A program made the translations under genes and the position numbers. Positions 5,861 through 52,479 of a stretch of 64,000 bases of DNA are shown one piece after another. This DNA is from a virus. The notes beneath the pieces were generated by a model that was not told the origin of the DNA, made no database searches, and saw only the letters and a program-made list of their open reading frames with translations. The stretch is taken from the IMG/VR virus record IMGVR_UViG_3300036715_000468. The stretch is one strand, 5' to 3'. The stretch's first letter is position 1. Each line of letters starts with the position of its first letter.

Positions 5861-5868
5861 GATAAATA
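5861..5868 (+). promoter_or_regulatory. T4 late-promoter-like GATAAATA element 5 nt upstream of the ATG at 5874
   Basis: gataaata-tagat-ATG; no Shine-Dalgarno; same layout recurs at 36971, 52182, 27677(-) and 36934(-). Confidence 0.4.
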
Positions 5869-5873
5869 TAGAT

Positions 5874-6248
5874 ATGAAAATACGTGAGACAATTTTAGAA
5901 CCAATGATAACTCATTTGCTCAATCTATGCAAACAAGAACTGGGAATATCCGAGTTACCTACCGTTCGAATGATAAGTGATGATCCTGCAATTAAGTCGG
6001 GTGATAAGATGTCATTCGGTCAATTCGATGGCCAAACTATAGAAGTAATAACAACTGGAAGACATCCAGTTGACATATTTAGAACGCTGGCGCATGAACT
6101 GACACACTGGAAACAAAAACTTTCAGGTCAGGAGATGGACGGTGAAGACGGTAGCGATATAGAGAACGAAGCTAATGCGCAAGCTGGTGTAATAATGCGT
6201 AAGTTCGGTGAAAAGTATCCCGAGTGTTTTACTAGTTCGCTGCCCTAA
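5874..6248 (+). CDS. small HExxH zinc-metallopeptidase-like protein
   Basis: AHELTHW motif (HExxH) followed by an EN-E-ANAQ segment; 124 aa; a lone plus-strand gene in a minus-strand region. Confidence 0.45.
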   Translation: MKIRETILEPMITHLLNLCKQELGISELPTVRMISDDPAIKSGDKMSFGQFDGQTIEVITTGRHPVDIFRTLAHELTHWKQKLSGQEMDGEDGSDIENEANAQAGVIMRKFGEKYPECFTSSLP

Positions 6249-6570
6249 CATCAAACACTAATCTAAAAGCAGTCTCGTCTTCCGGTGTTAAAATAAGATT
6301 TAGAACTAAATCAGCCTCAAGAGTTTGCATACTATTTATAACTGTGCCGAACGAACGAACTCCTGTATCAGCTACCCATTTATACACATCTGGCAGATAT
6401 TGTTTGACAAAATGTGTTACAACACGGCTATGATATAATACATCGCTTTCATAGAATTCCCTGGGCAATTCTCTCTTACAACTAGACATCCAACTCCAAT
6501 CTACACGACCGACCTTATATACAGAATATATAATGTCGTTGACATGTTGTTTACCGTAATATTTAATCAT
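6232..6570 (-). CDS. hypothetical protein
   Basis: 112-aa ORF. Confidence 0.4.
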   Translation of the reverse strand: MIKYYGKQHVNDIIYSVYKVGRVDWSWMSSCKRELPREFYESDVLYHSRVVTHFVKQYLPDVYKWVADTGVRSFGTVINSMQTLEADLVLNLILTPEDETAFRLVFDVRAAN

Positions 6571-6596
6571 AACATATTATATACTCTTACATGCTA

Positions 6597-6890
6597 CTAG
6601 TCATCGACTTCGGTGCAAACTTCCCCAACTGTTAATTTAACAACAGTAAAATCTGTAGTCTTAAACATCTTATTTAACCGTTCAGCCAAGTTAAAGGCAT
6701 GCCCCGAATTAGAAAAACTTACTTTCTTATATTTTGGGCCAGGATATGAAATAAGGTGGCTAAGTGTCCGAAGATTAATTGGCTTACCTAGATAGAATAC
6801 TGCATAAATCGCATCGGCATTAAGCACTTGTTCAGCTTTATAACTTTTATTTACATTCTCTAAAAGTATTTGTGGTTTAGGTCGAGCCAT
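6597..6890 (-). CDS. hypothetical protein
   Basis: 97-aa ORF; GATAAATA motif on the minus strand 24 nt upstream (plus coordinates 6914..6921). Confidence 0.4.
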
Positions 6891-6913
6891 TACATTTCTC
6901 CAATAATATATAC

Positions 6914-6965
6914 ATATTTATCTAAATATATACTTTTAATGACTATTAGGAAACGATGATAAATA
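6914..6965. promoter_or_regulatory. divergent pair of GATAAATA late-promoter-like elements (minus 6914..6921, plus 6958..6965)
   Basis: tatttatc on plus equals GATAAATA on minus, upstream of 6890; gataaata on plus upstream of 6984. Confidence 0.35.
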
Positions 6966-6983
6966 GCTTACTATGGGAATATT

Positions 6984-7196
6984 ATGAGATTATTTGAATT
7001 GTTTGAAGGGCGAGTAAAGAATGCTGGCATGGACGGTACGTATCAAGCATCTGTACCTAAGCGAGTTGGAAAATTTTGTATATCAATTAATGGAAAGAAA
7101 TGGGGAAATTTCGACACACATAATGCTGCCATGAAAGTAGCAGAACGTAAGTATGCAGAAAATCCCAAATTACATATATCAGTAGTACCTCGTTAA
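6984..7196 (+). CDS. hypothetical protein
   Basis: 70-aa plus-strand ORF. Confidence 0.35.
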   Translation: MRLFELFEGRVKNAGMDGTYQASVPKRVGKFCISINGKKWGNFDTHNAAMKVAERKYAENPKLHISVVPR

Positions 7197-7390
7197 AAAG
7201 TACCACCATCTATAATACGCACTGTGGGCGGTTCCACAACAATTGGCGCAGATACTACCTTGACGACCGGTATAGCTAAGTTATCAATCTCGCTTAATAA
7301 CTCTTTTGCTTCAGCTACAGTCATTCTATATTCTGTCACATTCCGCTGAACGTTCCTTAACCTTGCACGTAGTTTATTGATTTCGGACAT
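7193..7390 (-). CDS. hypothetical protein
   Basis: 65-aa ORF. Confidence 0.3.
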   Translation of the reverse strand: MSEINKLRARLRNVQRNVTEYRMTVAEAKELLSEIDNLAIPVVKVVSAPIVVEPPTVRIIDGGTF

Positions 7391-7393
7391 TAA

Positions 7394-8181: not shown

Positions 8182-8191
8182 ATTACGCTCC

Positions 8192-9244
8192 TTAATATTT
8201 CGATTTTAACATAGGCATAAAATCTGCCAAAGTATTTCCAATTTTTGTTAATTGCCATCTACCACAAAATTTCGAAAAGCCAAACCCAATATCAGCTGCT
8301 GGGACAGACTTGACACCTGTCGTCTCTGCAATAGTTACAAGGCATCCAATTTTTATATCCTCGGGAATCTTATCGAGCCTGATAAGTGACTCATTAAAAT
8401 TAAAATCATCGCGGACTGTGTGTTGTGTACCATCGTGGTGTGTAAATTTACACATCATAAAGTTATTCCAATTATAGCCCTTATTATCCCTGTCGGCGTA
8501 TGCCTCGCGTATTCCTATAGATTTCTTAGTGCCCTTCTCACGGACACCCGGATACGAACTAAAGATATTATCTGTCTTGTCGCCTCGTACACACTTTAGA
8601 AATAGTGCATAATTATACCACTCCGGTTCGCATACAAAATGCGGATCTTTGCCACCAGCTTTAATTTTAGCATCTGACGTAAGAACAAATGATAGGCGAT
8701 TGCCATAGTCGTCATATACACCGTCTTGTTTAATCTGTATGTCTTTGACTGGGTCGTATAGCATTACATTAGGAAATGCTAGAAGTTGGAAAAAATCTGA
8801 ATCTGAGCTAATAAGTATATGGTCATCATCAGGATGTGCTTCGATGAATACTGCTATAAGATCGTCTGCTTCTGCATTTGCATTTTGTAACACAGTAACA
8901 TTCGTCTTCTCAGCTAAGTAATTTACTAGATCATCGAATGCCTCAACCAGGATTCCATGATCTTCTTGTTCTTTAAGAGTTTGTTCTGCAAATTTTAATT
9001 TACGATCACCTTTGTAATCGGGATAGACGCCTTTGCGCCATGACCGGCCTTCCATGTGAAATACAACATGTGTACCATTCCATTTTAGGTACTCTTTCTT
9101 CATGCTCTGCAAAATCATATGTAATGCCATGCCAATTGCTGAGTCGATACCCAATGCAGGATTCACCATCTTGATTTGTCTATAAAACAAATTTGATCCA
9201 TCTGTATGAATGAATGTTCGTCGTTTATTAGGGATAAGTGTCAT
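8192..9244 (-). CDS. rnh: RNase H / flap endonuclease (T4 rnh-like 5'-3' exonuclease)
   Basis: N-terminal HTDGSNLFYR and an acidic cluster LISSDSDFFQL, typical of the FEN / T4 RNase H family. Confidence 0.75.
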   Translation of the reverse strand: MTLIPNKRRTFIHTDGSNLFYRQIKMVNPALGIDSAIGMALHMILQSMKKEYLKWNGTHVVFHMEGRSWRKGVYPDYKGDRKLKFAEQTLKEQEDHGILVEAFDDLVNYLAEKTNVTVLQNANAEADDLIAVFIEAHPDDDHILISSDSDFFQLLAFPNVMLYDPVKDIQIKQDGVYDDYGNRLSFVLTSDAKIKAGGKDPHFVCEPEWYNYALFLKCVRGDKTDNIFSSYPGVREKGTKKSIGIREAYADRDNKGYNWNNFMMCKFTHHDGTQHTVRDDFNFNESLIRLDKIPEDIKIGCLVTIAETTGVKSVPAADIGFGFSKFCGRWQLTKIGNTLADFMPMLKSKY

Positions 9245-9309
9245 ATACTATTATACTATGTCTGAATGGGTTTGTCTATAGGTGCGGTTGTGTAAATTTA
9301 TAATGTCGT

Positions 9310-10849: not shown

Positions 10850-10967
10850 TTTGTTATCCTATACCCTATTGTCCATAAATCAATTCTTACGAACCAATTC
10901 CCTTCATTCTTACCAAAACCGAATCGTAACATACGGTTATTTATGTCCAGTTCGATCTTAGTTAATG

Positions 10968-11849
10968 TCACGATAAACCTGCATATAAATGCATTTGTAA
11001 GTTTAATTTGAATCCGTAGTCCATGCAGTAACGAGCAGTAAATTTATGATTCTTTTCATTTGCCGCTAAATTTAACACACCTGGTTCCCAGAAATCAATA
11101 ACTTCATCAACAGTGCTACGTTCTGCCATTGTAATTGTGCCTTTTTCGGCGCGGATTAATTTAATAGTTTGTGGTAAGTCATTATAGATATTCATTGGGC
11201 TACAATAAATATCCTTCCCTGTGCGTTCTTTCCATTCGTGCGCCCATTGTGGCACTTGATTATATGGAGACCCTTCGTCGACGCTCATCACAAATTTAAG
11301 ACAGTCTGCGCGATCTAAAATAGTCTTGCTCGGTGCTAGATACTTAACAGCTACACCGTTTTTCTCTGCACATTTCGGCGAACAAACTAAGGTAACACCT
11401 TCGGGTACTAGTGTATCCGGTGTACCGTTACTTTCGACCTGAACTGCTTTAAATGTTGCTAATTGCTTAGTCATAAATGCACTAATATTATCTTGTAACA
11501 ATGGTTCCCCGCCGGTCATCACTAATACGATATTTGGATATTTAATCGAATTAGATCCGTTAGGTAATGCCCACATTGGAACCGTCTTACCTTTATCATT
11601 CCAATAATCACATATTGTGTGATACATTTTAGATTCGATTTCGTCAAAGGTTAACCAATCACCATCATCAAAGAATGTATCACAGAATGAACAATCTAAG
11701 TTGCACTTAGCTAAACGGATGAACAAAGCCGGCATGCCGGAATAAGGACCTTCGCCCTGGAGTGTAAAGAACATGCTTGTTACAAACAAACTATCTTTAG
11801 GTGCATCCTTAAAAAACTTCTTCCCAACAATTTCATTAGTTCCAAACAT
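10968..11849 (-). CDS. queE: radical-SAM 7-carboxy-7-deazaguanine synthase (QueE-like) with a C-terminal extension
   Basis: FFTLQGEGPYSGMPALFIRLAKCNLDCSFCDT: the QueE-specific TLQGEG box followed by the CxxxCxxC radical-SAM cluster. Confidence 0.8.
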   Translation of the reverse strand: MFGTNEIVGKKFFKDAPKDSLFVTSMFFTLQGEGPYSGMPALFIRLAKCNLDCSFCDTFFDDGDWLTFDEIESKMYHTICDYWNDKGKTVPMWALPNGSNSIKYPNIVLVMTGGEPLLQDNISAFMTKQLATFKAVQVESNGTPDTLVPEGVTLVCSPKCAEKNGVAVKYLAPSKTILDRADCLKFVMSVDEGSPYNQVPQWAHEWKERTGKDIYCSPMNIYNDLPQTIKLIRAEKGTITMAERSTVDEVIDFWEPGVLNLAANEKNHKFTARYCMDYGFKLNLQMHLYAGLS

Positions 11850-27676: not shown

Positions 27677-27684
27677 TATTTATC
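27677..27684 (-). promoter_or_regulatory. GATAAATA element 6 nt upstream of the start of 26288..27670
   Basis: minus strand reads GATAAATA-cataat-ATG; no Shine-Dalgarno. Confidence 0.4.
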
Positions 27685-27707: not shown

Positions 27708-27732
27708 TAAAAGGGACCGAAGTCCCTTTTAA
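27708..27732 (-). terminator. rho-independent terminator hairpin
   Basis: gggaccgaagtccc stem flanked by A and T runs. Confidence 0.6.
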
Positions 27733-27743: not shown

Positions 27744-28109
27744 TTAGATATCAAACTGTGCTGCCACAGAACGTGGAACCAAACTAATGTTTAGTTCTTG
27801 TGCTTTGCTAACAATAGCAGGCAATACAAACAATGCGCCAGGGATGGCAACGATGCCGGCGAATGTAGTTGCTTTAGCTAATTCTACAGCCTTTTTATTT
27901 GCACTAGTAATTTCGTTAATTGTTGCAGTACCAGTTGCAGCTTTCTGGTAAACCTTCATTACTTCTTGGCTATTTGCGTATTCTGTTTCGAATACTTTTT
28001 GGACTTTCTCCATTACTACTTTTACATCTTCTGGCGTCTTAGGGACGTTCGAATAGAATGCTGTAACTGAGTTTAAAAAGTCTTGTGGTGTTTTCATTGT
28101 GCTAAACAT
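27744..28109 (-). CDS. hypothetical C-terminally membrane-anchored protein
   Basis: 121 aa, hydrophobic segment near the C-terminus; an exact TATAAATA lies 67 nt upstream. Confidence 0.45.
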   Translation of the reverse strand: MFSTMKTPQDFLNSVTAFYSNVPKTPEDVKVVMEKVQKVFETEYANSQEVMKVYQKAATGTATINEITSANKKAVELAKATTFAGIVAIPGALFVLPAIVSKAQELNISLVPRSVAAQFDI

Positions 28110-28175
28110 AATATATTTCCTTGTGAGTGTGATTTGTTGTCTCCCAGTGAGTGCAACAAATTATTATTATACACT

Positions 28176-28183
28176 ATTTATAT
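28176..28183 (-). promoter_or_regulatory. T4-type late promoter (exact TATAAATA)
   Basis: tatttata on the plus strand equals TATAAATA on the minus strand, upstream of 27744..28109. Confidence 0.45.
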
Positions 28184-28461: not shown

Positions 28462-28521
28462 TATAATACCTCCTAATTATATTATACTATATTTATCAAA
28501 ATATTACGAAAATGGATCCAA

Positions 28522-31468: not shown

Positions 31469-31507
31469 TTAAATCTCCTATTATAGGCCTTAACGGCCCT
31501 CTTTGTT

Positions 31508-31515
31508 ATTTATCC
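31508..31515 (-). promoter_or_regulatory. GATAAATA late-promoter-like element about 40 nt upstream of tail fibre gene 28568..31468
   Basis: tatttatc on the plus strand; followed by a GGAG RBS before the ATG. Confidence 0.4.
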
Positions 31516-32646: not shown

Positions 32647-33084
32647 TTATAGACTTAATAAGACTTTATCAATCTGTCCGTACTGCCAAGTGTTCCATTG
32701 CACATTCACTGGTGACGGTTGAAGATAATCTCGAGTTAATACTGCTCTTAGGAAAACAAAATTTCCTATAAATGTCGTTGCCATTGACCCTGTGTCGCCA
32801 CCGTTATTTCCTGTTGGTGCATACGGGTCAATCGGAAATGGTATGAATGGAGTATTTATATCGCCGTTTGGATTTAATTTAATCCAGAACCAATCTTCGG
32901 GTTTTGGATCTAGCGCAAGTGTGCCTTGTAAGCCAAAACCGCCTACTAGATTTTGATATATTACTTGCACAGTATGTATGCCGTCTGTATAGCCGTAATA
33001 AGCATCAGCCCTTATTGGCTCTCCGATAACATTCCAGTGTGTACCGGTATTTGTCATCATCAGAACTGATTTTCTAATTGCCAT
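32647..33084 (-). CDS. hypothetical tail-fibre-associated protein
   Basis: 145 aa, upstream of the fibre genes; GATAAATA 33 nt upstream. Confidence 0.45.
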   Translation of the reverse strand: MAIRKSVLMMTNTGTHWNVIGEPIRADAYYGYTDGIHTVQVIYQNLVGGFGLQGTLALDPKPEDWFWIKLNPNGDINTPFIPFPIDPYAPTGNNGGDTGSMATTFIGNFVFLRAVLTRDYLQPSPVNVQWNTWQYGQIDKVLLSL

Positions 33085-33116: not shown

Positions 33117-33137
33117 TATTTATCTGTTCGATAAATA
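33117..33137. promoter_or_regulatory. divergent pair of GATAAATA elements (minus 33117..33124, plus 33130..33137)
   Basis: AT-rich 76-bp intergenic region between divergent genes 33084 and 33161. Confidence 0.35.
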
Positions 33138-33899: not shown

Positions 33900-36116
33900 T
33901 TAAACTACAATTAATGCTTCTGTTACGGGTGGATGCGGATCAATAACAAGTTCGCCGTCGACACAATCAACATTAACACGGCCGCCATCTTTTAACTTAC
34001 CGAATAAGATTTCTTTAGATAATACCTTTTTAATCTTCTCTTCGAATAAGCGTTCAAACGGTCTTGCACCCATTAATGGGTCATAACCATTTGTAGCAAG
34101 CCAGTCACGTGCCTGCTGAGTTACATTAAGTGTAATGTTCTTTGGAGCAAGCATTACATCTGTTTTCTCAACTTCGGCATTAACAATCAAATTCATTTCA
34201 TTCATTGTTAGTTTGTTAAATTTAACAATACCATCTAAACGATTTCTAAATTCTGGGCTAAAGAATTTTTTGATTTCAGCTTCAACAACTGCGCCGTTAT
34301 CTTGGCTACCAAAACCAATCTTTAATTTCTCAGCATCTGCTGCACCTAAGTTAGCAGACATAATAATGATTACGTTTGAGAAATCTACTGTCTTACCTTT
34401 AGACGATGTTAAGCGACCGTCATCCATTACTTGCAATAATACAGTTAATACGTCAGGATGGGCCTTTTCAACTTCATCGAGCAATAATACACAGTTCGGA
34501 TTAGTATCCACTACCTGAATCAATTGTCCTTCACCCATTTTACCTTCGCCGTGTCCTACAAAACCTGGAGGGGCACCAATAAATTTAGATACTGTATGCT
34601 TTTCCATGTATTCAGACATATCAAAACGTGCAAAGTGAACGCCGAGTGATTCAGCAAGTTTCTTAGCAGTATAAGTCTTACCAGTACCGGTTGGGCCAGT
34701 AAATAAGAAGCTACCGATAGGCTTAGTTGGATTACGCAATCCAGCCTTAGACATAAAGATTGCTTCAACAAGTTTGTCAATAGCAACATCTTGTCCATAC
34801 ACTTTGTTCTTTATACGTGGTGCAAGATTTTCCAACGCACTGTTTTCCTTCATGTCGATCATCTCAACAGGAATATGTGCAATTTTTGCAGCCTGGCGAA
34901 CAACGGAATCTATCGTCACTATTTTTTCTTCACGTAACTTAGCGATGGCACCGGCCGAATCCATAACGTCGATTGCTTTGTCCGGGAAGAACTTAGACTT
35001 CATATAACGTCCCGACAAATCTACGCACATATCTGTCGCGCCTTCTTCGAATGTTACACCGTGGAACTTCTCGTATTGATATGCAATACCGCGAAGAATA
35101 AGTTTTGTTTCTTCTGCAGACGGTTGATTAATATCGTACTTCTGGAAACGACGCAACAGTGCTTTATCTTTTTCGAAGTGTTCGTGGAACTCATCGTATG
35201 TTGTAGCGCCGACACACATTAATTGGCCCTTAGCAAGCATAGGCTTTAACATGTTACCTGCATCCATCTGGCTACCAGTCGTAGAACCTGCGCCTAAAAT
35301 CATGTGTATTTCATCAATAAACATAATGCAGTTACCGAGTTTTTTAACTTGGTCTAACACACCTTTCAAACGTTCTTCGAAGTCACCGCGGAATTTCGTA
35401 CCAGCTAACAAAGCACTGATATCTAAACTGTATACAACCTTATCTTGCAATGCTTTTGGAACTTCTTTATTTATAATCTTCAGTGCCAAGCCTTCTGCTA
35501 ATGCAGTTTTACCCACACCAGGCTCGCCGACATACACAACATTGTTCTTTTTACGACGAGCTAAGATTTCGATAGTATCGACAACTTCGCGTTCACGTCC
35601 GATCACCGGATCAATTGCACCATCTGTTGCTTCTTTATTTAAGTTACGTGCATACAAGTCTAAGAAAGTGTCTTCTTGTGTTGCTTGTTTCTCGTCTGCC
35701 TTACGCAAATGTTCGATAATTTTTTCTCTAGACACGCCGTATTTGCCTAAGAAATAATGTGAGTGGCTTGTTTCTTCGCTTAATATACTTAACAAAATAG
35801 CTTCGTTGCTAAGTTCGGCGCGGCCGCTAAATACTGCTTGTGTCAGCGCTCGCTGGAATGTGCGTTGTAATACAGCCGTGCGTTTTGCGGGTATGTCTTT
35901 TAGTGCGTCCGGCTTTTTAAGTGCAGGATCACCCAAAAATTGTATAGTCTCCGTCTTAATTTTAGCTGGTTGCCCGCCAATAGCAAGGATAAGTTCATTA
36001 ACTTCTTTCTCATGTAACAGAGATAATAATACATGCTCTAATGTTACATATTCGTGATTGTTGTCATTTGCGATTGCAACTGCGCGTTCAATCATTTTCT
36101 CTACCTTCTTAGTCAT
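33900..36116 (-). CDS. clpA: ClpA-type AAA+ unfoldase (ATP-dependent Clp protease ATP-binding subunit)
   Basis: ClpA-like N-domain (EYVTLEHVLLSLL), two AAA modules with Walker A GEPGVGKTA and GPTGTGKT, no ClpB middle domain, a KIGFG ClpP-docking loop; 738 aa. Confidence 0.9.
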   Translation of the reverse strand: MTKKVEKMIERAVAIANDNNHEYVTLEHVLLSLLHEKEVNELILAIGGQPAKIKTETIQFLGDPALKKPDALKDIPAKRTAVLQRTFQRALTQAVFSGRAELSNEAILLSILSEETSHSHYFLGKYGVSREKIIEHLRKADEKQATQEDTFLDLYARNLNKEATDGAIDPVIGREREVVDTIEILARRKKNNVVYVGEPGVGKTALAEGLALKIINKEVPKALQDKVVYSLDISALLAGTKFRGDFEERLKGVLDQVKKLGNCIMFIDEIHMILGAGSTTGSQMDAGNMLKPMLAKGQLMCVGATTYDEFHEHFEKDKALLRRFQKYDINQPSAEETKLILRGIAYQYEKFHGVTFEEGATDMCVDLSGRYMKSKFFPDKAIDVMDSAGAIAKLREEKIVTIDSVVRQAAKIAHIPVEMIDMKENSALENLAPRIKNKVYGQDVAIDKLVEAIFMSKAGLRNPTKPIGSFLFTGPTGTGKTYTAKKLAESLGVHFARFDMSEYMEKHTVSKFIGAPPGFVGHGEGKMGEGQLIQVVDTNPNCVLLLDEVEKAHPDVLTVLLQVMDDGRLTSSKGKTVDFSNVIIIMSANLGAADAEKLKIGFGSQDNGAVVEAEIKKFFSPEFRNRLDGIVKFNKLTMNEMNLIVNAEVEKTDVMLAPKNITLNVTQQARDWLATNGYDPLMGARPFERLFEEKIKKVLSKEILFGKLKDGGRVNVDCVDGELVIDPHPPVTEALIVV

Positions 36117-36126: not shown

Positions 36127-36927
36127 TTAAATATTAATTGAATCTCTGTGTGTCAATGTTTTTAAAACTTCCGCTTGTGCAACAGTCAGTGCCTTCGGAA
36201 TAGTAATAGTGATGCGAACTAATATATCACCATGTTTATCAAGTTCGGGGTTTCTCATTCCTTTGCCTGATAATTTAACTATTTGCCCGGGCTGTATGCC
36301 TGCTGGTATTACAAACTGTAGTTTAACACCATCTAAGTGGTCTAGTATAGCATCCATGCCAACCATGGCCTCGATAGCATCAATTGTTACGTCAACTAGT
36401 AAATCGTCATTAGATCGTTTAAATTTAAAATGCTGTTGTATATCAACACGATACATTTTGTTATCAACAAAAAATTTAGTTCCAGATCTTGCTCCTCGTG
36501 GAACATTAATCACTGCTGACGAACTAACTCTTATCGACTTACCTATATATGCATCTGCAAGAGATATCGTTAATATATGTGTTGTTGTTTGTTGTTGCTG
36601 CGGTTGCTGTGGTCGTTGATTGAAGAATGCCTTAAACATCTCATCGAACTGTGCTGTATCAGTGCTCTGATGTGTCCAACTAGACCTGTTATTTGAAAAT
36701 CCTGGTCCGGCATGGCCATAGGTATCATATTCTTTGCGTTTTTCGAGATCACTCAATACTTCATATGCGTCTTTTGCTTCTTTAAACTTTTCCTCGGCTG
36801 CTGCGGAGCCTTCCCCGGGATTTCGATCAGGATGAAACTTCATCGCTAGGCGTTTATATCTGCCTTTAATTTCTTCAGCGGTAGCAGTTCGTTCTAACCC
36901 TAATATTTCATAATAATCTTTTTTCAT
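36127..36927 (-). CDS. DnaJ-like J-domain co-chaperone (CbpA/DnaJ type, no zinc finger)
   Basis: N-terminal J domain DYYEILGL...[12 protein letters not shown] with HPD; a Q-rich linker ([10 protein letters not shown]) instead of a G/F region; C-terminal substrate-binding-like domain. Confidence 0.85.
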
Positions 36928-36933: not shown

Positions 36934-36978
36934 TATTTATCGTAAGTAGTCATCTCTACACATTATAAAAGATAAATA
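36934..36978. promoter_or_regulatory. divergent pair of GATAAATA elements, each 5-6 nt from its ATG (minus 36934..36941 for dnaJ-like; plus 36971..36978 for the endonuclease)
   Basis: minus: GATAAATA-tagtat-ATG; plus: gataaata-agtat-ATG; neither has a Shine-Dalgarno. Confidence 0.4.
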
Positions 36979-36983
36979 AGTAT

Positions 36984-37748
36984 ATGTCAAAATATAAGCC
37001 TCGTGGAACAGCAATATCTTTAGCAAAACGGATGCCATTATCCGAATTTATAGATAAAGCTAAAATAATACATAATAATAAATATGACTACAGTTATGTA
37101 GATTATATTAACGCACATACGCATATAAAAATTATATGCCCCGAACACGGCGAGTGGATGCAAACCCCGATGAGTCATACTACGCGAAAATGTGGATGTC
37201 CTACCTGTGGGAATATCAAAAAAGGTATTTCCAAAAAAATATCATCATATAATAAATTTATTCTATTTGCAAAAAACTTCCATAATAACAAATATACATA
37301 TCTGGACGAAACATTCACTGGGATAACATCTATAATGAAAATTATCTGTCCAGTTCATGGAGAATTCTCCCAATCACCCGATGTCCATAAACGTGCCGGG
37401 TGTCAACGATGCGGATCAGGACCAGTTTCCGAAGCATCACAAGTATGGCTAGATTCTTTACATATATGTAAAGAATATCGAGAAATTTGGATTAAACTCG
37501 GATCTAAACGAATTAAGGTAGACGCATATGATCCGAATACAAACACTATATATGAATACTGGGGCGATTATTGGCACGGTAATCCCGATACATATGATCA
37601 TAAAAAGGTAAATTCGAATAATAAGAAAACATTCGGCGAATTATATTCTTTAACTATGGAAAGAATATCTCTTATAGAATCTGCAGGATATGCCCTTGTT
37701 CAAGTGTGGGAGAAAGACTGGTTAAAATCTATAAGTAATACGCCCTAA
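36984..37748 (+). CDS. freestanding homing-endonuclease-like protein (duplicated zinc-ribbon module plus a C-terminal Vsr / PD-(D/E)xK-like domain)
   Basis: two repeats of [10 protein letters not shown]...[14 protein letters not shown]...GC; C-terminus [22 protein letters not shown] resembles the Vsr/DUF559 core; a plus-strand insertion between dnaJ-like and infA. Confidence 0.5.
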
Positions 37749-37943
37749 TGTAAGATCATAACATGAAAGTTCCACTTCCACCAAATCATTTAATAAAATT
37801 TGAATATTATTCTTTCTAATTTTACCACTAATAACGGCATTAAGGGTGTGTCCGTTTTCTAATTTAACTTTAAATTTTGCTCCTGGTGCTGCATCAGTAA
37901 CACGCCCTTTTGTGACAATCATGCCATCTTTATCTTTAGCCAA
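37722..37943 (-). mobile_element. see CDS call below (placeholder removed)
   Basis: ignore; duplicate of the infA CDS entry that follows. Confidence 0.
37722..37943 (-). CDS. infA: translation initiation factor IF-1 homolog
   Basis: [73 protein letters not shown] aligns along its whole length with bacterial IF-1 (S1-like OB fold). Confidence 0.85.
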
Positions 37944-37947: not shown

Positions 37948-38700
37948 TTAGTTCCTATATGTTATTTGTGTATCTTTTAGCAACATTATCTTATTGTCAT
38001 AATTAACGGAAAGATATTTTCCTATTGGTAAAACTTGGCAATTTCCTAAAATGCTTAATAATATCTTAGCTTCATAAGGATCTCGACCTACCATAAAAGC
38101 AGACTCACTTAGGAAATTTCTACCAATAATAGTATCATAATCTCCTACATCAATAACTTCTGCAATCACTTTCTTACCGTTCCCTGCTAGTGTAACAAAG
38201 TTACCGTCAATAGTCAAGTCTGCGACTAAGGAAGCACTAAAAAATTTCTCAATAGATTCTTTCATTTCTTTCATTTTAAACTCATCCTTTGGTACATAGT
38301 CTGCGGGGTCGATAATAACATAATTGTATAATTCTGGGTCATTGTATGCAAATGATTGTCCGTTGGAAAAATATGTAGTTACAGTCCAGTCCATCGATCC
38401 ACTTAAATTACCTATATCTGTTAAGAGTGCTTGGAATTTATTCGGAAAAGTATCGTCACGATTCATTTCGACAAATACAAGATATCGACCTTCCTCATCG
38501 GTGTTAGGGCTTACTTCGACATCTAATGTATCGATAAATCCACGTTGAATAAATGTATTAAGATCTGCCGCTGGCTCTTCATCTGTAAGATAAAATGCAA
38601 CAACAATAACATCTACATCGTCGCCAGCTTTTGGCTCAAATTCGTCGATAGAGACGTCGGGCAATATAGTTCCCGCCAAGTCGCCATTCTTTAAGCTCAT
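37948..38700 (-). CDS. hypothetical protein
   Basis: 250-aa acidic ORF. Confidence 0.5.
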
Positions 38701-39299
38701 ACTTCTTCCTCCGGTGGCATCATATCACTAGTATCATCCATACCCATGCCCTGATCTTCTTCTGGCGCCATTTCCTCTTGCGGAGCTTCATCAAATGCAT
38801 CTGCTAGTTCTGCATTAGTATCATCGATGTCGCGCTGAATAATATCATCTGTTTGTTCTAATCCACGGCTGATATATTTCATCGGTAGTTCTATAGTTAC
38901 TAACCAAATTTCATGCTCAGCCATTTTAGCTCGTTTAGTTTGTGGGTCTACCCAGTCCTGCGGGCCTTCCACTTTTACAGGCTTTTTAAAAACACCTTTC
39001 CTAAAATTTACTTTTGCGCCTAACTTTGTTAACCGTAGTCCAGCATTTGGGTCGGGCATCATAGCGTAAGGATACATGAATACAACTTTGTACCAATAAC
39101 GACTAATAGTCGGGCCTTCGACCAGTTCGCCCAATATCCAATTCTTATATGCAAATATCTCTGCATTATCTAGTGTGCGCTCAAATTCGATCAGAGTGCT
39201 TAATATATCATTGCCCTTAGAGATATTTACAAGGGTTGTTTTTATCGTATCAAGATCCGTCATGTATTCCTTTTTGTCTATCCATATGCTATTTATCAA
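38697..39299 (-). CDS. hypothetical protein with an acidic C-terminal tail; probable true start at Met13 (about 39263)
   Basis: the TTG start called by the track lies inside a GATAAATA element; an in-frame ATG 36 nt downstream has an AAGGA RBS; the C-terminus is DE-rich ([26 protein letters not shown]). Confidence 0.5.
   Translation of the reverse strand: MINSIWIDKKEYMTDLDTIKTTLVNISKGNDILSTLIEFERTLDNAEIFAYKNWILGELVEGPTISRYWYKVVFMYPYAMMPDPNAGLRLTKLGAKVNFRKGVFKKPVKVEGPQDWVDPQTKRAKMAEHEIWLVTIELPMKYISRGLEQTDDIIQRDIDDTNAELADAFDEAPQEEMAPEEDQGMGMDDTSDMMPPEEEV
39290..39297 (-). promoter_or_regulatory. GATAAATA late-promoter-like element
   Basis: tatttatc on the plus strand, 28 nt upstream of the likely ATG of the acidic-tail gene. 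Confidence 0.4.
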
Positions 39300-40264: not shown

Positions 40265-40624
40265 CTAATCTCTAGGTAGTAGACTATTTGCACTTCTATT
40301 TCTATTTTGACTTCTGCTTATCTCAGACAACTGGCGTTCATATCGTTCCTTTAATGCAGATTCGACTGGTGGCAATTTTTGTTCTTTAGATTGGGCTTTC
40401 TTAACATCCAATTCGAATAATTTATCTTCTAACATCTGTCTGCGTAGAGTTTGCGAAGTATCTTGGATAAGATCTTGTGTCTGAAGTTTTTCCTTAATTA
40501 CATCTACTGCATGTGCATATCGACTGTCGATAGTAAATAGTGCAGTAACTAATGTGATGACAGTTCCGATTGAGCCAAACGCCACTTTACCGATGTTATC
40601 TTTAATAAGTGCTTTAATTTCCAT
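40265..40624 (-). CDS. hypothetical membrane-anchored protein
   Basis: 119 aa, one TM near the N-terminus, charged C-terminus. Confidence 0.4.
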   Translation of the reverse strand: MEIKALIKDNIGKVAFGSIGTVITLVTALFTIDSRYAHAVDVIKEKLQTQDLIQDTSQTLRRQMLEDKLFELDVKKAQSKEQKLPPVESALKERYERQLSEISRSQNRNRSANSLLPRD

Positions 40625-40654
40625 AGTATATCCTTAACGATATACTATTTATAA

Positions 40655-43468: not shown

Positions 43469-43822
43469 TTAAAACGGTCGTGTTGTTACAAATTCTGAAA
43501 ATATATCTGTCTCTTGCACTGTATCCGAAACTAACAGAACCGACTTAGGATATTCTACTGCCCACAACGGTAATTCTTGATTAGCTTCGTCTTTAATTTT
43601 GATCATCCTTGTCCAACGACCATTTTCTATCAGAATCCACTGACCTACGCGGATTGCACCAAGTGCTTCTATGTCTTCGCCAACAGCATATACTTTTGCC
43701 CAACGTGGACGAATACCCTCGCTCTTGCCGTCATCAGCAGGAATAATAATTCCATTCACGGTCCTAGTGCCTCGTTCGAGTTCAGTTACGAGAACCTTAC
43801 CCTTCATTGCTTTAATTTCCAT
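43469..43822 (-). CDS. GroES-like co-chaperonin (Cpn10 / T4 gp31-like)
   Basis: MKGKVLVTELERGTRTVNGIIIPAD...AKVYAVGED...IRVGQWILI parallels GroES IRPLHDRVIVKR...GGIVLP...GEVLAVGNG...VKVGDIVIF. Confidence 0.55.
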   Translation of the reverse strand: MEIKAMKGKVLVTELERGTRTVNGIIIPADDGKSEGIRPRWAKVYAVGEDIEALGAIRVGQWILIENGRWTRMIKIKDEANQELPLWAVEYPKSVLLVSDTVQETDIFSEFVTTRPF

Positions 43823-44162
43823 CAGTGTCGCCTTCTACGATAATGTCACCCGACGGCAATTCTGTTTCTTTCTTTACCGTGGCTGGTGCAGCTGGCTTAG
43901 TTACCTTAACTGCTTTAGTTTGTTCAATTGTAGCATCAGGTGCAATAGGTTGTCTACCTTTCAAACCTGTATTAACAACAACTGACTGAACACGATGATT
44001 TTCTCGCGCAATTTGATCTGCTGTTTTTGTTACTTTGCCACCCTTAATTTGGTCGCCTTTGGCGTTAACTGGCATGTTTCCAATTGCTGCCGTTTTTTCA
44101 TTTTCACGAGCCAATGACTCCATGTCAATTGTTGCTCCGCGATACGATGTATGTTTACTCAT
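43812..44162 (-). CDS. hypothetical protein
   Basis: 116 aa, basic, Lys/Thr/Ala-rich. Confidence 0.4.
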   Translation of the reverse strand: MSKHTSYRGATIDMESLARENEKTAAIGNMPVNAKGDQIKGGKVTKTADQIARENHRVQSVVVNTGLKGRQPIAPDATIEQTKAVKVTKPAAPATVKKETELPSGDIIVEGDTDGN

Positions 44163-44328
44163 TTTATTTCTCCAGTGAAATATTTATACCATTATCTTGA
44201 CCAATTTTAATAAAATCGTCAAAAAATTCTTTACTCATTCTAGTAATTATGTATCCGTCGACTTCCGTATACGGTATCGAAATTGACCGTTGTGATAATC
44301 TATCATATTTTATTTTAATGTAATTCAT

Positions 44329-45585: not shown

Positions 45586-45834
45586 TTAATCATCTAATTT
45601 ACCTAATTCTATCGGGTTGTTTGAATCAGGAAATTTCTTCTTGAATTCCTCATCCGATATGTTCTGTTGCCTTTCCCGACGCTCATCTTCGAGTGCTTGT
45701 ATAACCTCTAATATACTACGAACAGTTGGATTATGTCCTAGGCCAACTTGTGCATTCATATACGAATAAGCCCTTCCTAACCTTTCGAGAATTCCCTCAT
45801 CCGACAAACTTTTTACATCTAAAAATGGGTGCAT
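45586..45834 (-). CDS. hypothetical protein
   Basis: 82-aa ORF. Confidence 0.35.
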   Translation of the reverse strand: MHPFLDVKSLSDEGILERLGRAYSYMNAQVGLGHNPTVRSILEVIQALEDERRERQQNISDEEFKKKFPDSNNPIELGKLDD

Positions 45835-45877
45835 AGATACTCCTGTGGTGCTATATATTTATAATAACACAAAAATA

Positions 45878-47075: not shown

Positions 47076-47137
47076 ATTACACTTTCTAAAGTTATTTGTT
47101 AAGTATTAATTATACACTTATATAATCGTAGTGTCAA

Positions 47138-48840: not shown

Positions 48841-48852
48841 ATTTTTCCTATG

Positions 48853-49995: not shown

Positions 49996-49996
49996 A

Positions 49997-50359: not shown

Positions 50360-50531
50360 ACTTGTTGCCGCCCAACATTGTCCAACGACCTTCTAAATTA
50401 TTAATACACCACATGACAATTCCTTGCTGCGCAATTTCATGATAAGGTATATTTAAGTTTGTAAATGTCCATGTCGACGAATCTGTATTCCTAACCAGTT
50501 CATTCATGGGTATGTATGTGTTTTTGTCCAT
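50289..50531 (-). CDS. small protein, member of the C-terminal motif family
   Basis: C-terminus ...FGFEDGVDATMFKMQFGFGVSNG. Confidence 0.4.
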   Translation of the reverse strand: MDKNTYIPMNELVRNTDSSTWTFTNLNIPYHEIAQQGIVMWCINNLEGRWTMLGGNKFGFEDGVDATMFKMQFGFGVSNG

Positions 50532-50596
50532 GTATTACCCTATATTGTTTTACAAGTGTAACATTTTTTAACTACTTTGTCAATTTTGGCAAAAAT

Positions 50597-50623
50597 AAAG
50601 CCGACCCAAAGAGTCGGCTTTAT
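50597..50623 (-). terminator. rho-independent terminator
   Basis: aaagccgac-ccaaagag-tcggcttt followed by TTTATTTTT on the minus strand. Confidence 0.6.
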
Positions 50624-50641
50624 GATTGGCTGCATATATTG

Positions 50642-51361
50642 TTACATATACGGTTTCCATGTATCGCGGGTATGTGCTAACCTGTTAGCAATTACATACA
50701 AGGAGATTGGATTGTGTCCTAACCCTAAGTGACATGCTCCCGGAATTTCTATATTTTCTCGTTGGAATCCATCATCCTCGATAGATGCTGCCCAGTCAAC
50801 TACGCCATCACTTTTACTATAGATAGAAGTGAATGGCACTGGCGGAGGTTCTGCAATACGCTTTAAGACATTCGGATCCTTGTGACTAAGATCCTTACTA
50901 AGTAACTCATATAAGAAATCTGCATTAGTCCCTGCAATATCTTTAAATGGTGTTCCTAATGTGATAACTTGACGCACAATATCTGGTGCAACTTTTGCCA
51001 TTTCCCTAGCATAGATTCCGCCTAGGCTCCAACCTATTATACTTACTTGTTGACCACCTGCTGATTCCGATACTGTCTGAACTAAATTTGTTAGTTCAAC
51101 TAACATGGTTTCCATACCTTTTTGTGGTCCCATATTTCTACCTAGTCCCCAGGGACGAGCATCATACCCTAATCCGTTAAGGAAGGTACGGGCAAAATGT
51201 GTTGAACCATCTGCCGTACCTAACCCGGGTAAAACTATTACAGGATGTCCATCTCCCTTCGGAGAAATATAATTTAACGGTGTGCTTAACAGCCAACCTA
51301 ATCCATATTCATATGCTGCCCGCACAACTTCGACACTTAACAACAGTTTAGATGGAGTCAT
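50642..51361 (-). CDS. alpha/beta-hydrolase fold esterase/lipase-like protein
   Basis: GWSLGG nucleophile elbow (GxSxG) and a PGLGTADG oxyanion-region-like segment. Confidence 0.6.
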   Translation of the reverse strand: MTPSKLLLSVEVVRAAYEYGLGWLLSTPLNYISPKGDGHPVIVLPGLGTADGSTHFARTFLNGLGYDARPWGLGRNMGPQKGMETMLVELTNLVQTVSESAGGQQVSIIGWSLGGIYAREMAKVAPDIVRQVITLGTPFKDIAGTNADFLYELLSKDLSHKDPNVLKRIAEPPPVPFTSIYSKSDGVVDWAASIEDDGFQRENIEIPGACHLGLGHNPISLYVIANRLAHTRDTWKPYM

Positions 51362-51495
51362 ATATCATCCCTTATAATACGTATATTTATATGAACTTAT
51401 AGAGATTATCTATCCTATCGAACATTATAATATTTTTCTTTATCGTTTAGTAATAATTATCTACGATATCACGGAGATAATTGTAAACACAAAAT

Positions 51496-52092
51496 TTAAA
51501 TCCTGCGTGTAATAATTTGATCTGCCAAGCCCATTTCCAGTGCTTGTGGCGCTGTCAACCATTTATCACGGTCCAAGTATTGTTTGAATTGATCAAACGT
51601 TACGCCTTTGGAATTGTGCTTAACATACAGTTCTGTCATCTCAGCTTTGATACGAAGACCTTCGATCAAGTCAATTTCCATATCAGACACCTTACCGCGT
51701 GTTCCCGATGATGGTTGATGGATCATTGTAATTGCATGTGGTAACAAATAGCGATGACCTGGCTCGCCTGCCTGAGCAATGAATGAACCCATGCTTGCAG
51801 CCATACCTGTTACATATGTGTGTACCGGACATTTTATATATTGCATAAGATCATAGACGCCCATGCCGTCGTAAACAGATCCACCCGGTGAATTAACATA
51901 AAGATTGATTGGCTGTTCTGGATTTTCTGCTTCGAGAAATAACATCTGTGCAATTAAGATATTGCACATATTAGTTTCTACTTCACCTGTCATAAAAATA
52001 ACACGTTCTTTCATCAGGCGGGAATATAAATCGTATGAACGTTCACCGCGAGATGTATTTTCTACTACCATAGGTACTAATACGTTTTTCAT
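51496..52092 (-). CDS. clpP: ClpP proteolytic subunit of ATP-dependent Clp protease
   Basis: near-collinear with bacterial ClpP ([11 protein letters not shown]...[12 protein letters not shown]...YVNSPGG...GMAASMGS...MIHQP), including the catalytic Ser and His motifs; 198 aa. Confidence 0.95.
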
Positions 52093-52181
52093 TTGTGTGT
52101 CCTTTTTAAATGTTGTTGGGGTAATTCACATATACATTATATACGACTGTAATAATAATGTCTACCGATACCAAAAACTTT

Positions 52182-52189
52182 GATAAATA
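52182..52189 (+). promoter_or_regulatory. GATAAATA element 5 nt upstream of the ATG at 52195
   Basis: gataaata-gtatt-ATG; the TTG start called by the track overlaps the motif. Confidence 0.4.
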
Positions 52190-52194
52190 GTATT

Positions 52195-52479
52195 ATGTCA
52201 ATACTTAAAAAAGATCAAACAAATATATGTCCCGTATGCAATAGTCATAAAATTTTCACAGTTAAATATTGCTCTAAAGAATGCAAATCTACAGGCGTAG
52301 CTAAATCATGTAAAGATACTTTTATAAAGAACTTCGGTGTTAGTAATCCATCTAAAGAAGTAAAATCAGCCTATACACATGCCGCTGATTTAGAGAAAAA
52401 TCTATTAAAACAACAAGCATGTATCAATGATGGATTTAATTTCGAATTCATGATCTTTGTTAAAGGTATGTTACAATGA
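52195..52479 (+). CDS. zinc-ribbon protein, possible homing-endonuclease remnant (start moved to the ATG)
   Basis: CPVCNS...KYCSKEC; plus-strand island with the same GATAAATA-N5-ATG layout as the endonuclease gene at 36984. Confidence 0.35.
   Translation: MSILKKDQTNICPVCNSHKIFTVKYCSKECKSTGVAKSCKDTFIKNFGVSNPSKEVKSAYTHAADLEKNLLKQQACINDGFNFEFMIFVKGMLQ

Follow-up and report, generated by a model that had tools for sequence, protein, structure and literature searches.

A probable T4-late-like promoter box next to start codons and predicted leaderless mRNAs in a family of uncultured jumbo phages

In phage T4, late promoters (TATAAATA) function with gp55, gp33 and the gp45 clamp. Their box lies at positions -13 to -6 and is followed by an A/T-rich segment, and its first position varies, with A at -13 in nine sites (PMC2988020). 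T4-like cyanophages have a NATAAATA late promoter, predicted in silico (PMC2984593), and for the Rak2-like jumbo phages CBB and GAP32 an ATAAATA late promoter has been predicted together with a gp55-like gene (PMC5259590). The phages of both groups encode a gp55-like factor, and their predicted promoters precede structural genes; a box abutting the start codon has not been described for either group (PMC5259590, PMC2984593).

Here, we analyze a 64,000-nucleotide stretch of viral DNA (the window) from a member of an uncultured family of jumbo phages with genomes of roughly 360-385 kb and a T4-type DNA polymerase. This phage is one of the T4-core "group 2" jumbo phages. Its recurrent box, GATAAATA, differs from the eight-base T4 box at the first position only, contains the core heptamer of the Rak2-like and cyanophage promoters, and fits the T4-family NATAAATA consensus (PMC2984593, PMC2988020). 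T4 late promoters and the window box also have in common the lack of a -35 element, A/T-rich downstream DNA, occurrence on both strands and association with virion genes, and the family B polymerase of T4 type is found in both phages. Unlike in T4, G is preferred at the first box position in the window family.

Placement of the box in the window

A first-pass annotation had described a recurrent octamer upstream of many genes, and the recurrence is stronger than it claimed. GATAAATA occurs 14 times in the window compared with 7.2 expected copies, and 0 of 100 dinucleotide shuffles reach 14. Five copies are on the (+) strand (5861, 6958, 33130, 36971, 52182) and nine on the (-) strand (6915, 27677, 28490, 31507, 33117, 36934, 39290, 60519, 63519). 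All 14 lie in the non-coding part of the window, about 10% of its length (1.12 copies expected there; Poisson P about 2e-11), while the 57.8 kb of coding sequence contains none (6.2 expected; P = 0.002), and all are oriented toward a gene start 5-38 nt downstream. By contrast, TATAAATA is not enriched in the window overall (11 copies vs 10.9 expected); six of the 11 copies are intergenic, each 18-65 nt upstream of a start with a Shine-Dalgarno (SD) sequence. Frequently, the box directly follows an intrinsic terminator or lies between divergent start codons, which are only 56-93 bp apart. The three divergent GATAAATA pairs reported earlier are all real.

At five genes, the ATG is 5-6 nt from GATAAATA and no SD was found, exactly as first annotated. 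The protein assignments also hold, including the HELTH motif, the CxxC pairs, DnaJ, sigma region 4 and HNH. The features of this short class are:

5861-5868 (+), GATAAATA box, spacer of 5 nt (TAGAT) to ATG 5874
5874-6248 (+), HExxH protein gene, predicted leaderless
27708-27731 (-), intrinsic terminator (hairpin and T-run), ending 23 nt upstream of the 27677 box
27677-27684 (-), GATAAATA box, spacer of 6 nt (CATAAT) to ATG 27670
26288-27670 (-), gene for a 460-aa region-4 protein, predicted leaderless
36934-36941 (-), GATAAATA box, spacer of 6 nt (TAGTAT) to ATG 36927
36127-36927 (-), dnaJ-like gene, predicted leaderless from the box promoter
36971-36978 (+), GATAAATA box, spacer of 5 nt (AGTAT) to ATG 36984
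36984-37748 (+), HNH endonuclease gene, predicted leaderless
52182-52189 (+), GATAAATA box, spacer of 5 nt (GTATT) to ATG 52195
52195-52479 (+), Zn-ribbon protein gene (CPVC...CSKEC), predicted leaderless

The other nine GATAAATA copies are followed by leaders of 18-38 nt, most with an SD. Together with the intergenic TATAAATA copies, these leadered boxes and one associated hairpin are:

6915-6922 (-), GATAAATA, 24 nt leader with GGAG, gene 6597-6890 (MARPKP...)
6958-6965 (+), GATAAATA, 18 nt to ATG 6984, divergent from 6915
28490-28497 (-), GATAAATA after a terminator, 28 nt leader with AGGAGG, gene 28219-28461
31507-31514 (-), GATAAATA, 38 nt leader with AGGAG, 966-aa head-decoration-like gene 28568-31468
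31485-31500 (-), conserved hairpin (GGCC-loop-GGCC)
33117-33124 (-), GATAAATA, 32 nt leader with GGAG, virion-protein gene 32647-33084
33130-33137 (+), GATAAATA, 23 nt to ATG 33161, divergent from 33117 and 5 bp apart
39290-39297 (-), GATAAATA, 26 nt leader with AAGGA, virion-protein gene 38697-39263
60519-60526 (-), GATAAATA after a terminator, 27 nt leader with GAGGG, 1124-aa gene 57117-60491
63519-63526 (-), GATAAATA, 21 nt leader with GGAGG, gene 62562-63497
28175-28182 (-), TATAAATA, 65 nt leader, gene 27744-28109
40646-40653 (-), TATAAATA, 21 nt leader with SD, gene 40265-40624
44181-44188 (-), TATAAATA, 18 nt leader with GGAG, gene 43812-44162
45856-45863 (-), TATAAATA, 21 nt leader with AGGAG, gene 45586-45834
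51384-51391 (-), TATAAATA, 22 nt leader with SD, gene 50642-51361
61104-61111 (-), TATAAATA, 38 nt leader with GGAG, gene 60736-61065

Three positions in this list (28175, 31507 and 6915) correct earlier ones that were off by one (28176, 31508, 6914), and two GATAAATA copies (28490 and 63519, both on the (-) strand) had been missed. The TTG starts noted at 52180 and 39299 are indeed mechanical output of the ORF caller; the 39290 box is not leaderless, its in-frame start being ATG 39263, and the ATG 4 nt after this box opens an ORF of only 11 codons. The GGCC hairpin begins 6-8 nt after the 31507 box and, thus, near the predicted 5' end of the leader. Several window copies of GATAAATA are followed within 0-3 nt by TATAAT, TATATA or TATATT.

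Spacing and conservation across the family

Among 170 unique GATAAATA sites in the window and its relatives, the spacer between box and ATG is bimodal with a mode of 5 nt: 50 sites have 4-7 nt, two have 8-14 nt and about 80 have 15-60 nt. These counts include orthologues, which are not independent events, and cover 36 downstream protein families, about 16 of which have a short-spacer member. Permuted control 8-mers gave no such peak. A core SD is present at 71 of the 80 leadered sites (89%) and at two of the 50 short sites (4%). All starts in the short class are ATG, with no GTG or TTG among them. Where orthologues differ in class, the spacer goes from 4-6 nt straight to 15 nt or more, together with the gain of an SD, and never to 8-14 nt.

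The upstream regions of orthologues have diverged and the box is the sole conserved element, with its spacing kept. For instance, box, 5 nt and ATG are retained at the HExxH gene in all six orthologues, and in L172-L178 the spacer and flank sequences differ. The region-4 protein has conserved N- and C-terminal domains with an inserted sigma-70 region 4 domain, and its gene has a 4-6 nt spacer at 27 of 29 unique orthologous sites; the two exceptions have leaders of 16 and 56 nt, both with SD. In 20 of 31 orthologous upstream regions of this gene, a hairpin of varying stem sequence ends 7-34 nt before the box, so that neither a -35 element nor a leader would fit in between. With a terminator this close, a gene would need its own promoter. 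In relatives, infA and dnaJ are neighbours; here, the HNH endonuclease gene lies between them. Leadered genes also keep their class, with 21-28 nt in 8/8 orthologues of gene 6597-6890 and 38-54 nt in 16/16 orthologues of the head-decoration-like gene. The 6958 box, by contrast, is 18 nt from its ATG here and 5-7 nt in relatives (spacers 5, 6, 7, 7, 7, 18), and the spacer of the 33130 box is 4 nt in one orthologue. At gene 27744-28109, the orthologous promoter in relatives is GATAAATA and not TATAAATA.

A similar layout is found in a second uncultured clade, which encodes a gp55-like factor. In about 30 loci of this clade, NATAAATA, with all four bases at N, lies 4-5 nt before the ATG of a gp25-like baseplate gene and the 9-14 nt zone is likewise empty. 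There, the box and the stop region at the end of the preceding gene overlap, and translational coupling could therefore contribute in that clade.

With a window-wide excess of only two-fold, the box might be taken for an A/T-rich octamer that happens to recur in intergenic DNA rich in A and T; however, the non-coding excess with depletion from coding DNA, the orientation and the conservation in diverged orthologues oppose this, and the bimodal spacing together with the non-coding confinement refutes a chance origin. Alternatively, the box could be an operator for a phage DNA-binding regulator, with the true -10 in the TATAAT-like sequence that often follows it, as at 28490 (GATAAATA-TAG-TATAAT). 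We find this highly improbable. For short-class genes, this -10 would run into the ATG and transcription would then begin within the gene, yet protein N-terminal conservation begins at this ATG; in DnaJ, the J domain runs from residue 4, which fixes the start at ATG 36927. Moreover, the positions after the box are merely A/T-rich family-wide, with no hexamer, and an A/T-rich downstream segment is also a feature of T4 late promoters (PMC2988020).

Predicted transcription start and recognition of the box

Taking these data as a whole, we consider it likely that GATAAATA, with TATAAATA as a minor variant, is a T4-late-like box, recognized in the manner of a -10 element at a promoter that is specific to the phage and would not need a -35 element. 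In this model, RNA polymerase, presumably the host core enzyme with a phage gp55-like factor, would start 5-7 nt downstream of the box. From the arrangement of the DNA we infer this start position, the recognizing factor, the late timing and the leaderless translation of the short class. With the T4 box at -13 to -6 (PMC2988020), the modal spacer of 5 nt puts the A of the ATG at +1, and messages from boxes 4-6 nt before an ATG would probably have neither leader nor ribosome-binding site. Thus, the mRNAs for the region-4-containing protein, the HExxH protein, DnaJ, the HNH endonuclease and the Zn-ribbon protein would begin with AUG and be translated without leader or SD. In the leadered class, the same box would act 15-60 nt upstream of a normal SD start. 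Leadered sites are enriched in A at the 5th-6th nt after the box, the place of the A of the ATG in short sites. Virion-protein genes stand behind leadered boxes, and "late" is suggested by these genes only; the short-class genes are non-structural and lend the term no support. By a simple 4-mer test, about one third of the window genes have no strong SD, so that SD absence alone is weak evidence. Both parts of the earlier reading, promoter and leaderless message, survived every indirect test run.

The same geometry is seen for sigma-70-type promoters, which lie 5-6 nt before the conserved ATGs of three other genes in a layout kept in relatives, and which therefore support a -10-type box with a start at the A of the ATG. 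These promoters, and a fourth at dnaJ, are:

5222-5250 (-), perfect TTGACA-N17-TATAAT, 5 nt (TAGCG) to ATG 5216 of gene 4773-5216, leaderless arrangement
5816-5844 (-), TTGTTT-N17-TGtTATACT, 7 nt to ATG 5808 of gene 5584-5808, leaderless arrangement
9250-9278 (-), TAGACA-N17-TATAAT, 5 nt to ATG 9244 of exonuclease gene 8192-9244, leaderless arrangement
36962-36990 (-), perfect TTGACA-N17-TATAAT, in tandem 20 nt upstream of the dnaJ box

In the orthologues of gene 4773-5216 in L172, L173 and L174, the -35, -10, 5 nt and ATG are kept, and in 6/7 orthologues of gene 5584-5808, 5-6 nt separate an (extended) -10 element from the ATG. The transcript predicted from the tandem promoter has a 28 nt leader without SD and, thus, dnaJ at least need not rely on a leaderless message.

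This last transcript would include the box, which brings up a reading at the RNA level: transcripts would start further upstream, and GAUAAAUA at -13 to -6 would stand in for the SD, its A/U-rich sequence serving as a signal for ribosome (S1) loading or re-initiation. The short-class box does sit where an SD would be, many window genes do without a strong SD, and the overlap with the upstream stop region in the second clade points the same way. Nevertheless, we regard this as very unlikely because the same box precedes SD-bearing genes at 15-60 nt, with no fixed relation to the start at most sites, terminators end 7-34 nt upstream, no further conserved promoter element is seen between divergent genes, an enhancer model does not predict an empty 8-14 nt zone, and consensus sigma-70 -10 boxes have the same 5-6 nt spacing to ATG. 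Likewise, the second role as a translation signal that the first-pass annotation suggested is not needed, and it fits poorly with the variable position of the box before SD genes.

Homologues of gp55, gp33 and gp45, which T4 has, were not found in the window, in the 6 kb to the left of it or in family loci totalling about 0.8 Mb, which represent only a fraction of each genome. This would suit a promoter whose box serves as an unusual -10 for the host primary sigma factor or for some other factor than gp55, and the phage clearly uses host-type consensus promoters elsewhere. Under this reading, TTGAC after upstream terminators would help some copies: in region-4 gene orthologues, the terminator T-run is often followed by TTGAC(T/A), which lies 10-27 nt before the box, and at 60519 the order is TTGACT, 18 nt, GATAAA. 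However, a distance of 10-27 nt is incompatible with a fixed 16-18 nt spacer, the family-wide position-weight profile upstream of the box has no conserved -35 element, and on direct reading no register of GATAAATA has T-12, A-11 and T-7, the key bases of a sigma-70 -10, together. Given also the match to the T4-family consensus and the same geometry in the gp55-bearing clade, we consider recognition by the host primary sigma or another such factor unlikely.

Comparison with known systems

The phage-specific promoter proposed here differs from its relatives in where the box can stand. The 29 TATAAATA copies in 150 kb of T4 are 13-52 nt from ORF starts and none is at 12 nt or less, whereas 30-40% of the window-family boxes are 4-7 nt from an ATG. 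The gp25-like gene has an SD ahead of it in the cultured relatives that were checked; in CBB and an Asteriusvirus it has no adjacent box, in Atu_ph07 it is preceded by TATAAATA, 35 nt and a GTG, and in PA5oct by GATAAATA, 23 nt and a GTG. Thus, the start-codon-abutting layout is absent from T4, Atu_ph07, PA5oct and the Rak2-like phages checked.

In poxvirus late promoters (TAAATG), the core also overlaps or abuts the start codon, and late messages are essentially without a templated leader, having a 5' poly(A) head made by slippage and a cap. The likeness is an analogy only: the polymerase is unrelated and the two systems have no evolutionary connection.

Leaderless mRNAs from -10-proximal starts are also known in bacteria and their phages; they include lambda cI from PRM and are abundant in Deinococcus and Actinobacteria. 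The AUG of such a message is also +1 and follows the -10 by about 6 nt; an SD is absent, and the start must be AUG (PMC4007540; Brock et al. 2008 via PMC5312081). The short class of the window shares the -10-proximal AUG, the lack of an SD and the AUG start. Unlike in these systems, the proposed promoter in the window family is of the T4 late type and not sigma-70, and the layout is conserved gene by gene alongside strong SD use.

Placement of the box in the window

The T4-late-promoter-like octamer, here called the box, is present in the window in a main form, GATAAATA, and a minor variant, TATAAATA. The main form has 14 copies where dinucleotide shuffles lead one to expect 7.2, and 0 of 100 shuffles reach 14. 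This two-fold overall excess understates the signal. Based on analytic Markov expectations and a curated gene map, non-coding DNA (~10% of the window) holds all 14 copies against 1.12 expected (P about 2e-11), whereas the 57.8 kb of coding DNA hold none against 6.2 expected (P = 0.002). Moreover, a gene start lies 5-38 nt downstream of every copy, and all 14 boxes are oriented towards it. For TATAAATA, there is no overall enrichment in the window. Of its 11 copies, six are in intergenic DNA, and each of these is followed 18-65 nt downstream by a start that has a Shine-Dalgarno (SD) sequence.

Five GATAAATA boxes lie so close to an ATG that the messages are predicted to be leaderless, and the positions and spacers in the first-pass annotation are exact for all of them:

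5861 (+), 5 nt before the ATG at 5874, gene for the HExxH protein
27677 (-), 6 nt before the ATG at 27670, gene for the region-4 protein (26288-27670, 460 aa, with a sigma-70 region 4 insert)
36934 (-), 6 nt before the ATG at 36927, dnaJ
36971 (+), 5 nt before the ATG at 36984, gene for the HNH endonuclease
52182 (+), 5 nt before the ATG at 52195, Zn-ribbon gene

The remaining nine copies are followed by leaders of 18-38 nt, with a GGAG-type SD in most. The boxes listed earlier are all real and the three divergent pairs are confirmed, although three coordinates were off by one and the copies at 28490 (-) and 63519 (-) had been missed. Behind the box at 39290 (-), the gene has a 26-nt leader with AAGGA and an ATG at 39263, and just an 11-codon ORF starts 4 nt after the box. 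This ORF (39253-39285 (-), MDRQKGIHDGS) overlaps the SD and ATG of the virion gene 38697-39263 and, therefore, may be a leaderless upstream ORF.

DNA and protein searches against cultured phages identified no near cultured relative of the window. The sole match is the family B polymerase, which shares 39-43% identity with the enzymes of Sinorhizobium phage Phosso, Agrobacterium phage Atu_ph07, a Vibrio jumbo phage and Rak2-like/Asteriusvirus phages, i.e. T4-core "group 2" jumbo phages. Members of this group carry genes for sigma factors and gp33 orthologues but none for an RNA polymerase of their own (PMC7824862). Uncultured IMG/VR contigs of up to 360-385 kb represent close relatives, whose polymerases are ~80% identical. 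Complete contigs of the family include IMGVR_UViG_3300009709_000001 (385 kb), 3300037466_002980, 3300045971_000577 and 3300017716_001697, and contigs identical to the window are found in JGI samples 3300035661 and 3300035182 and in run SRR11723144. Besides the polymerase, the window encodes DnaJ, IF1, virion proteins and a ClpB-like double-AAA ATPase, the gene for which (33900-36116 (-)) adjoins dnaJ (36127-36927 (-)), so that the phage carries its own chaperone set. A QueE-like radical SAM protein (10968-11849 (-), PHROG 2076) hints at 7-deazaguanine modification of the phage DNA.

Spacing between box and start codon in the phage family

We surveyed the spacer to the first ATG of the ORF at 170 unique GATAAATA sites, pooled from the window and loci of its uncultured relatives. 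The spacer is 4-7 nt at 50 sites (short class), 8-14 nt at two sites and 15-60 nt at about 80 sites (leadered class), and permuted octamers of the same composition have no spacing peak. The proteins downstream fall into 36 families, among them:

Region-4 protein family: short in 27/29 sites
HExxH protein family: short in 6/6, 5 nt each
MRLFEL... protein family: short in 5/6
966-aa head-decoration-like protein family: leadered in 16/16, 38-54 nt
MAIRKS... virion protein family: leadered in 10/10
MARPKP... protein family: leadered in 8/8

Families that switch class jump from mode to mode, e.g. from 4 to 23, from 4 to 60, from 5 to 18-37, and from 6 to 15 or 26 nt. Of the leadered sites, 71 of 80 carry a core SD 4-mer, vs 2 of 50 short sites. 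All 50 short-class genes begin with ATG, and neither a GTG nor a TTG candidate was found 4-7 nt after the box among the 170 sites. In orthologues of the region-4 gene, the upstream flanks are unalignable, while GATAAATA is kept with the ATG 4, 5 or 6 nt away; the rare orthologues with a longer spacer (16 or about 56-60 nt) have gained AGAGG or GGGG before the ATG.

Conservation of the short-class proteins starts at residue 1-4, which argues that the box-adjacent ATG is the true start. With a 6-nt spacer, the TAA of the box is in frame and closes any upstream extension of the ORF. Gene callers misplace the starts of these genes: in the JGI model, the region-4 protein (P0001, 449 aa) begins 11 codons past the predicted leaderless ATG, and a mechanical ORF caller does, as had been pointed out, choose a TTG inside the box.

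With a transcription start 5-7 nt after the box, a message would have either no leader or one of at least ~10 nt that accommodates an SD and its spacing, and an empty zone at 8-14 nt is what is then expected. Because about a third of the window genes lack a strong SD in a crude test, the case for leaderless messages is built on geometry and conservation and not on SD absence alone. In this jumbo phage family, a box 4-6 nt before the ATG marks a conserved gene class whose messages are probably leaderless.

The two box forms appear as alternatives at one orthologous promoter, which follows a conserved terminator and has TATAAATA in the window (28175-28182 (-)) and GATAAATA in four relatives (L016, L018, L023 and L067). 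Thus, G and T are interchangeable at position 1, and this position (-13) varies in T4 too (PMC2988020). Among 62 family TATAAATA sites, none has a short spacer.

The box as a promoter and its possible reader

Several features liken the box to T4 late promoters. The octamer itself is of the T4 type (14 GATAAATA and six intergenic TATAAATA copies). A position profile of 130 sites has no conserved -35 element and only a T-rich region at -1 to -5, and terminators take up the -35 region upstream of the box. The ten positions that follow the box are each most often A or T at leadered sites. PHROG virion/head families lie behind the boxes at 31507, 33117 and 39290; the short-class genes are non-structural. 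The T4 late box spans -13 to -6 (PMC2988020), and the modal 5-nt spacer would accordingly set the A of the ATG at +1. A is also enriched at the fifth to sixth nt after the box at leadered sites, i.e. where the A of the ATG lies at short sites. Together, this enrichment and the 4-6 nt ATG spacing are consistent with a box centred roughly one helical turn ahead of the site where transcription would start.

Alternatively, as the first-pass annotation proposed, the box next to an ATG could double as a translation signal in the RNA. Upstream of the region-4 gene, 20 of 31 unique regions contain a GC-rich hairpin with a T-run whose end is 7-34 nt from the box, as identified with 90 nt of context. 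The stems differ (GGGAC/GTCCC, GGGGC/GCCCC, GGTCC/GGACC and GGATGC/GCATCC), and in three regions the gap from terminator to ATG is just 19-21 nt, leaving space for the box alone. Similarly, the divergent ATGs of dnaJ and the HNH endonuclease gene are 56 bp apart, and the ATG of the HExxH gene is 65 bp from that of its divergent neighbour. Terminators, divergent ATGs, the lack of a -35 signal, A enrichment and T4 geometry all favour a promoter over an RNA signal. By sequence criteria, the box is a real, conserved and -35-independent promoter element of T4 late type that favours G as its first base.

GATAAATA does not fit a sigma-70 -35/-10 promoter. The TTGAC found after some terminators sits 10-27 nt from the box and not at a fixed 16-18 nt; T-12, A-11 and T-7 occur together in no register of the box; and the window has genuine consensus sigma-70 promoters as separate elements. 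In total, five perfect TTGACA-N16-18-TATAAT promoters are present against 0.14 expected:

5222-5250 (-), perfect sigma-70 promoter
36962-36990 (-), perfect sigma-70 promoter
47109-47137 (-), perfect sigma-70 promoter
54943-54971 (+), perfect sigma-70 promoter, antisense to gene 54234-55007
62169-62196 (-), perfect sigma-70 promoter

These promoters serve as an internal calibration. Gene 4773-5216 (-) has its ATG 5 nt after the end of the promoter at 5222-5250. The exonuclease gene 8192-9244 (-) is preceded by TAGACA-N17-TATAAT-AGTAT-ATG, and its orthologues retain TTGACA or TAGACA, N17, TATAAT, 5-6 nt and ATG; in the protein, MHTFIHTDG begins one to two residues past the start. At gene 5584-5808 (-), an extended -10 element lies 5-7 nt before the ATG in six of seven genomes. 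Family-wide, the distance from TATAAT to the ATG of an ORF peaks at 5-7 nt. Thus, conserved sigma-70-type promoters 5-7 nt before three ATGs indicate that the leaderless layout is not restricted to the GATAAATA class. These promoters of well-understood geometry show that this phage family habitually places start codons at the predicted +1, and that GATAAATA occupies the place expected of a -10 element. From promoter geometry only, we infer that the 5' end of the short-class transcripts is at the A of the AUG.

The sigma-70 promoter at 36962-36990 (TTGACA-N17-TATAAT) lies 20 nt upstream of the dnaJ box. With the promoters in tandem, dnaJ could also be produced as a message with a 28-nt leader and no SD. 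Read as their reverse complement, the first codons of the divergent endonuclease gene form the -35 hexamer of this promoter. In the relatives L001-L004, dnaJ directly follows infA, which encodes IF1. In the window, the HNH endonuclease gene (36984-37748 (+)) separates infA (37722-37943 (-)) from dnaJ on the opposite strand and overlaps the infA 3' end by 27 nt. It looks as if insertion of a homing endonuclease created the divergent box pair 36934/36971. The dnaJ-based loci of relatives are mostly non-syntenic, and dnaJ follows infA there without a box.

A conserved hairpin with GGCC-loop-GGCC (31485-31500 (-)) lies a few nt after the predicted leader 5' end of the 966-aa head-decoration-like gene. 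It is kept in 16 of 16 orthologues with a nearly invariant stem, and it may stabilise the 5' end of this leader.

A T4-type late promoter raises the question of gp55. We searched for gp55, gp33 and gp45 using phmmer with T4 and Atu_ph07 sequences, a profile of 80 gp55-like sequences and a motif regex, and found no homologue in the window, the 6 kb beyond its left end, locus L182 or the family loci, which cover part of each ~370 kb genome. Likewise, none of the best 80 of >570 gp55 relatives is on a known family contig. The region-4 protein was considered as a sigma factor and as the reader of the box. It is not a sigma factor: only residues about 178-252 are sigma-like, resembling region 4 of the primary type. 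Many homologues do not have this segment, which is inserted between N- and C-terminal domains that are conserved in the family, and the family has no profile similarity to gp55. Possibly, the region-4 protein binds the beta flap, like gp33 or as a decoy.

The predicted layout in other T4-related phages

Another jumbo clade, which encodes a long gp55-like protein, had only 18 GATAAATA in the 727 kb first sampled, with short spacers almost absent. We also examined a second, gp55-encoding uncultured clade (around the gp55-like protein P0102) with 10 kb flanks. Here, in about 30 distinct loci, the gp25-like baseplate wedge gene has its ATG 4-5 nt after NATAAATA, in which all four bases occur first. 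The same holds for three other gene families, and no NATAAATA site lies 9-14 nt before an ATG. In L236 (around 2700) and L241 (around 2200), two loci of this clade, GATAAATA lies 5 nt before the ATG of the gp55-like gene itself, which suggests possible autoregulation. The box in this clade overlaps the end of the upstream gene, making translational coupling possible there. With this caveat, the clade links the start-abutting geometry, as predicted from sequence, to gp55-encoding genomes and to an undoubted late gene.

By contrast, the gp25-like gene of cultured relatives has a leader, with a plain SD in CBB and an Asteriusvirus; Atu_ph07 has TATAAATA, 35 nt, AAGGA and GTG; and PA5oct has GATAAATA, 23 nt, CAGGA and GTG. 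The PA5oct transcriptome paper describes sigma-70-like promoters only. For the Rak2-like phages CBB and GAP32, ATAAATA upstream of structural genes together with a gp55-like gene has been proposed as a T4-like late system (PMC5259590). In the literature searched, we found no earlier account of T4-type late promoters that give leaderless messages. Across 150 kb of T4, the distance between TATAAATA and an ORF start is 13-52 nt for the 29 copies and never below 13 nt, unlike in the window family with its short class. Thus, the predicted layout is common to the window family and the second uncultured clade and is absent from T4 and the cultured relatives examined.

We speculate, while considering it rather improbable, that several uncultured T4-related giant-phage clades run a dedicated leaderless regulon with ATGs exactly at +1 of host-type and gp55-type promoters. 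If so, translation of its genes would be independent of SD pairing, e.g. while SD-dependent initiation is shut down or altered, and the regulon would act together with phage IF1, DnaJ, the ClpB-like ATPase and an RNA-polymerase-directed, region-4-bearing protein. The absence of the layout from T4 and the cultured relatives would then point to a lineage-specific feature of host or phage translation.

T4-type late transcription is a classic system, but its promoters have been regarded as normal units with leaders. Here, a T4-type box repeatedly abuts the start codon, and this layout is conserved gene by gene in two uncultured giant-phage clades. If 5' ends confirm the predicted starts, this would represent phage-wide leaderless translation that is tied to promoters of an alternative class. 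With the spacing rule (4-7 nt or at least 15 nt), annotations can be corrected and transcription units predicted in metagenomic jumbo phages, and the cultured relatives with the same box and leadered GTG starts provide a direct experimental handle.
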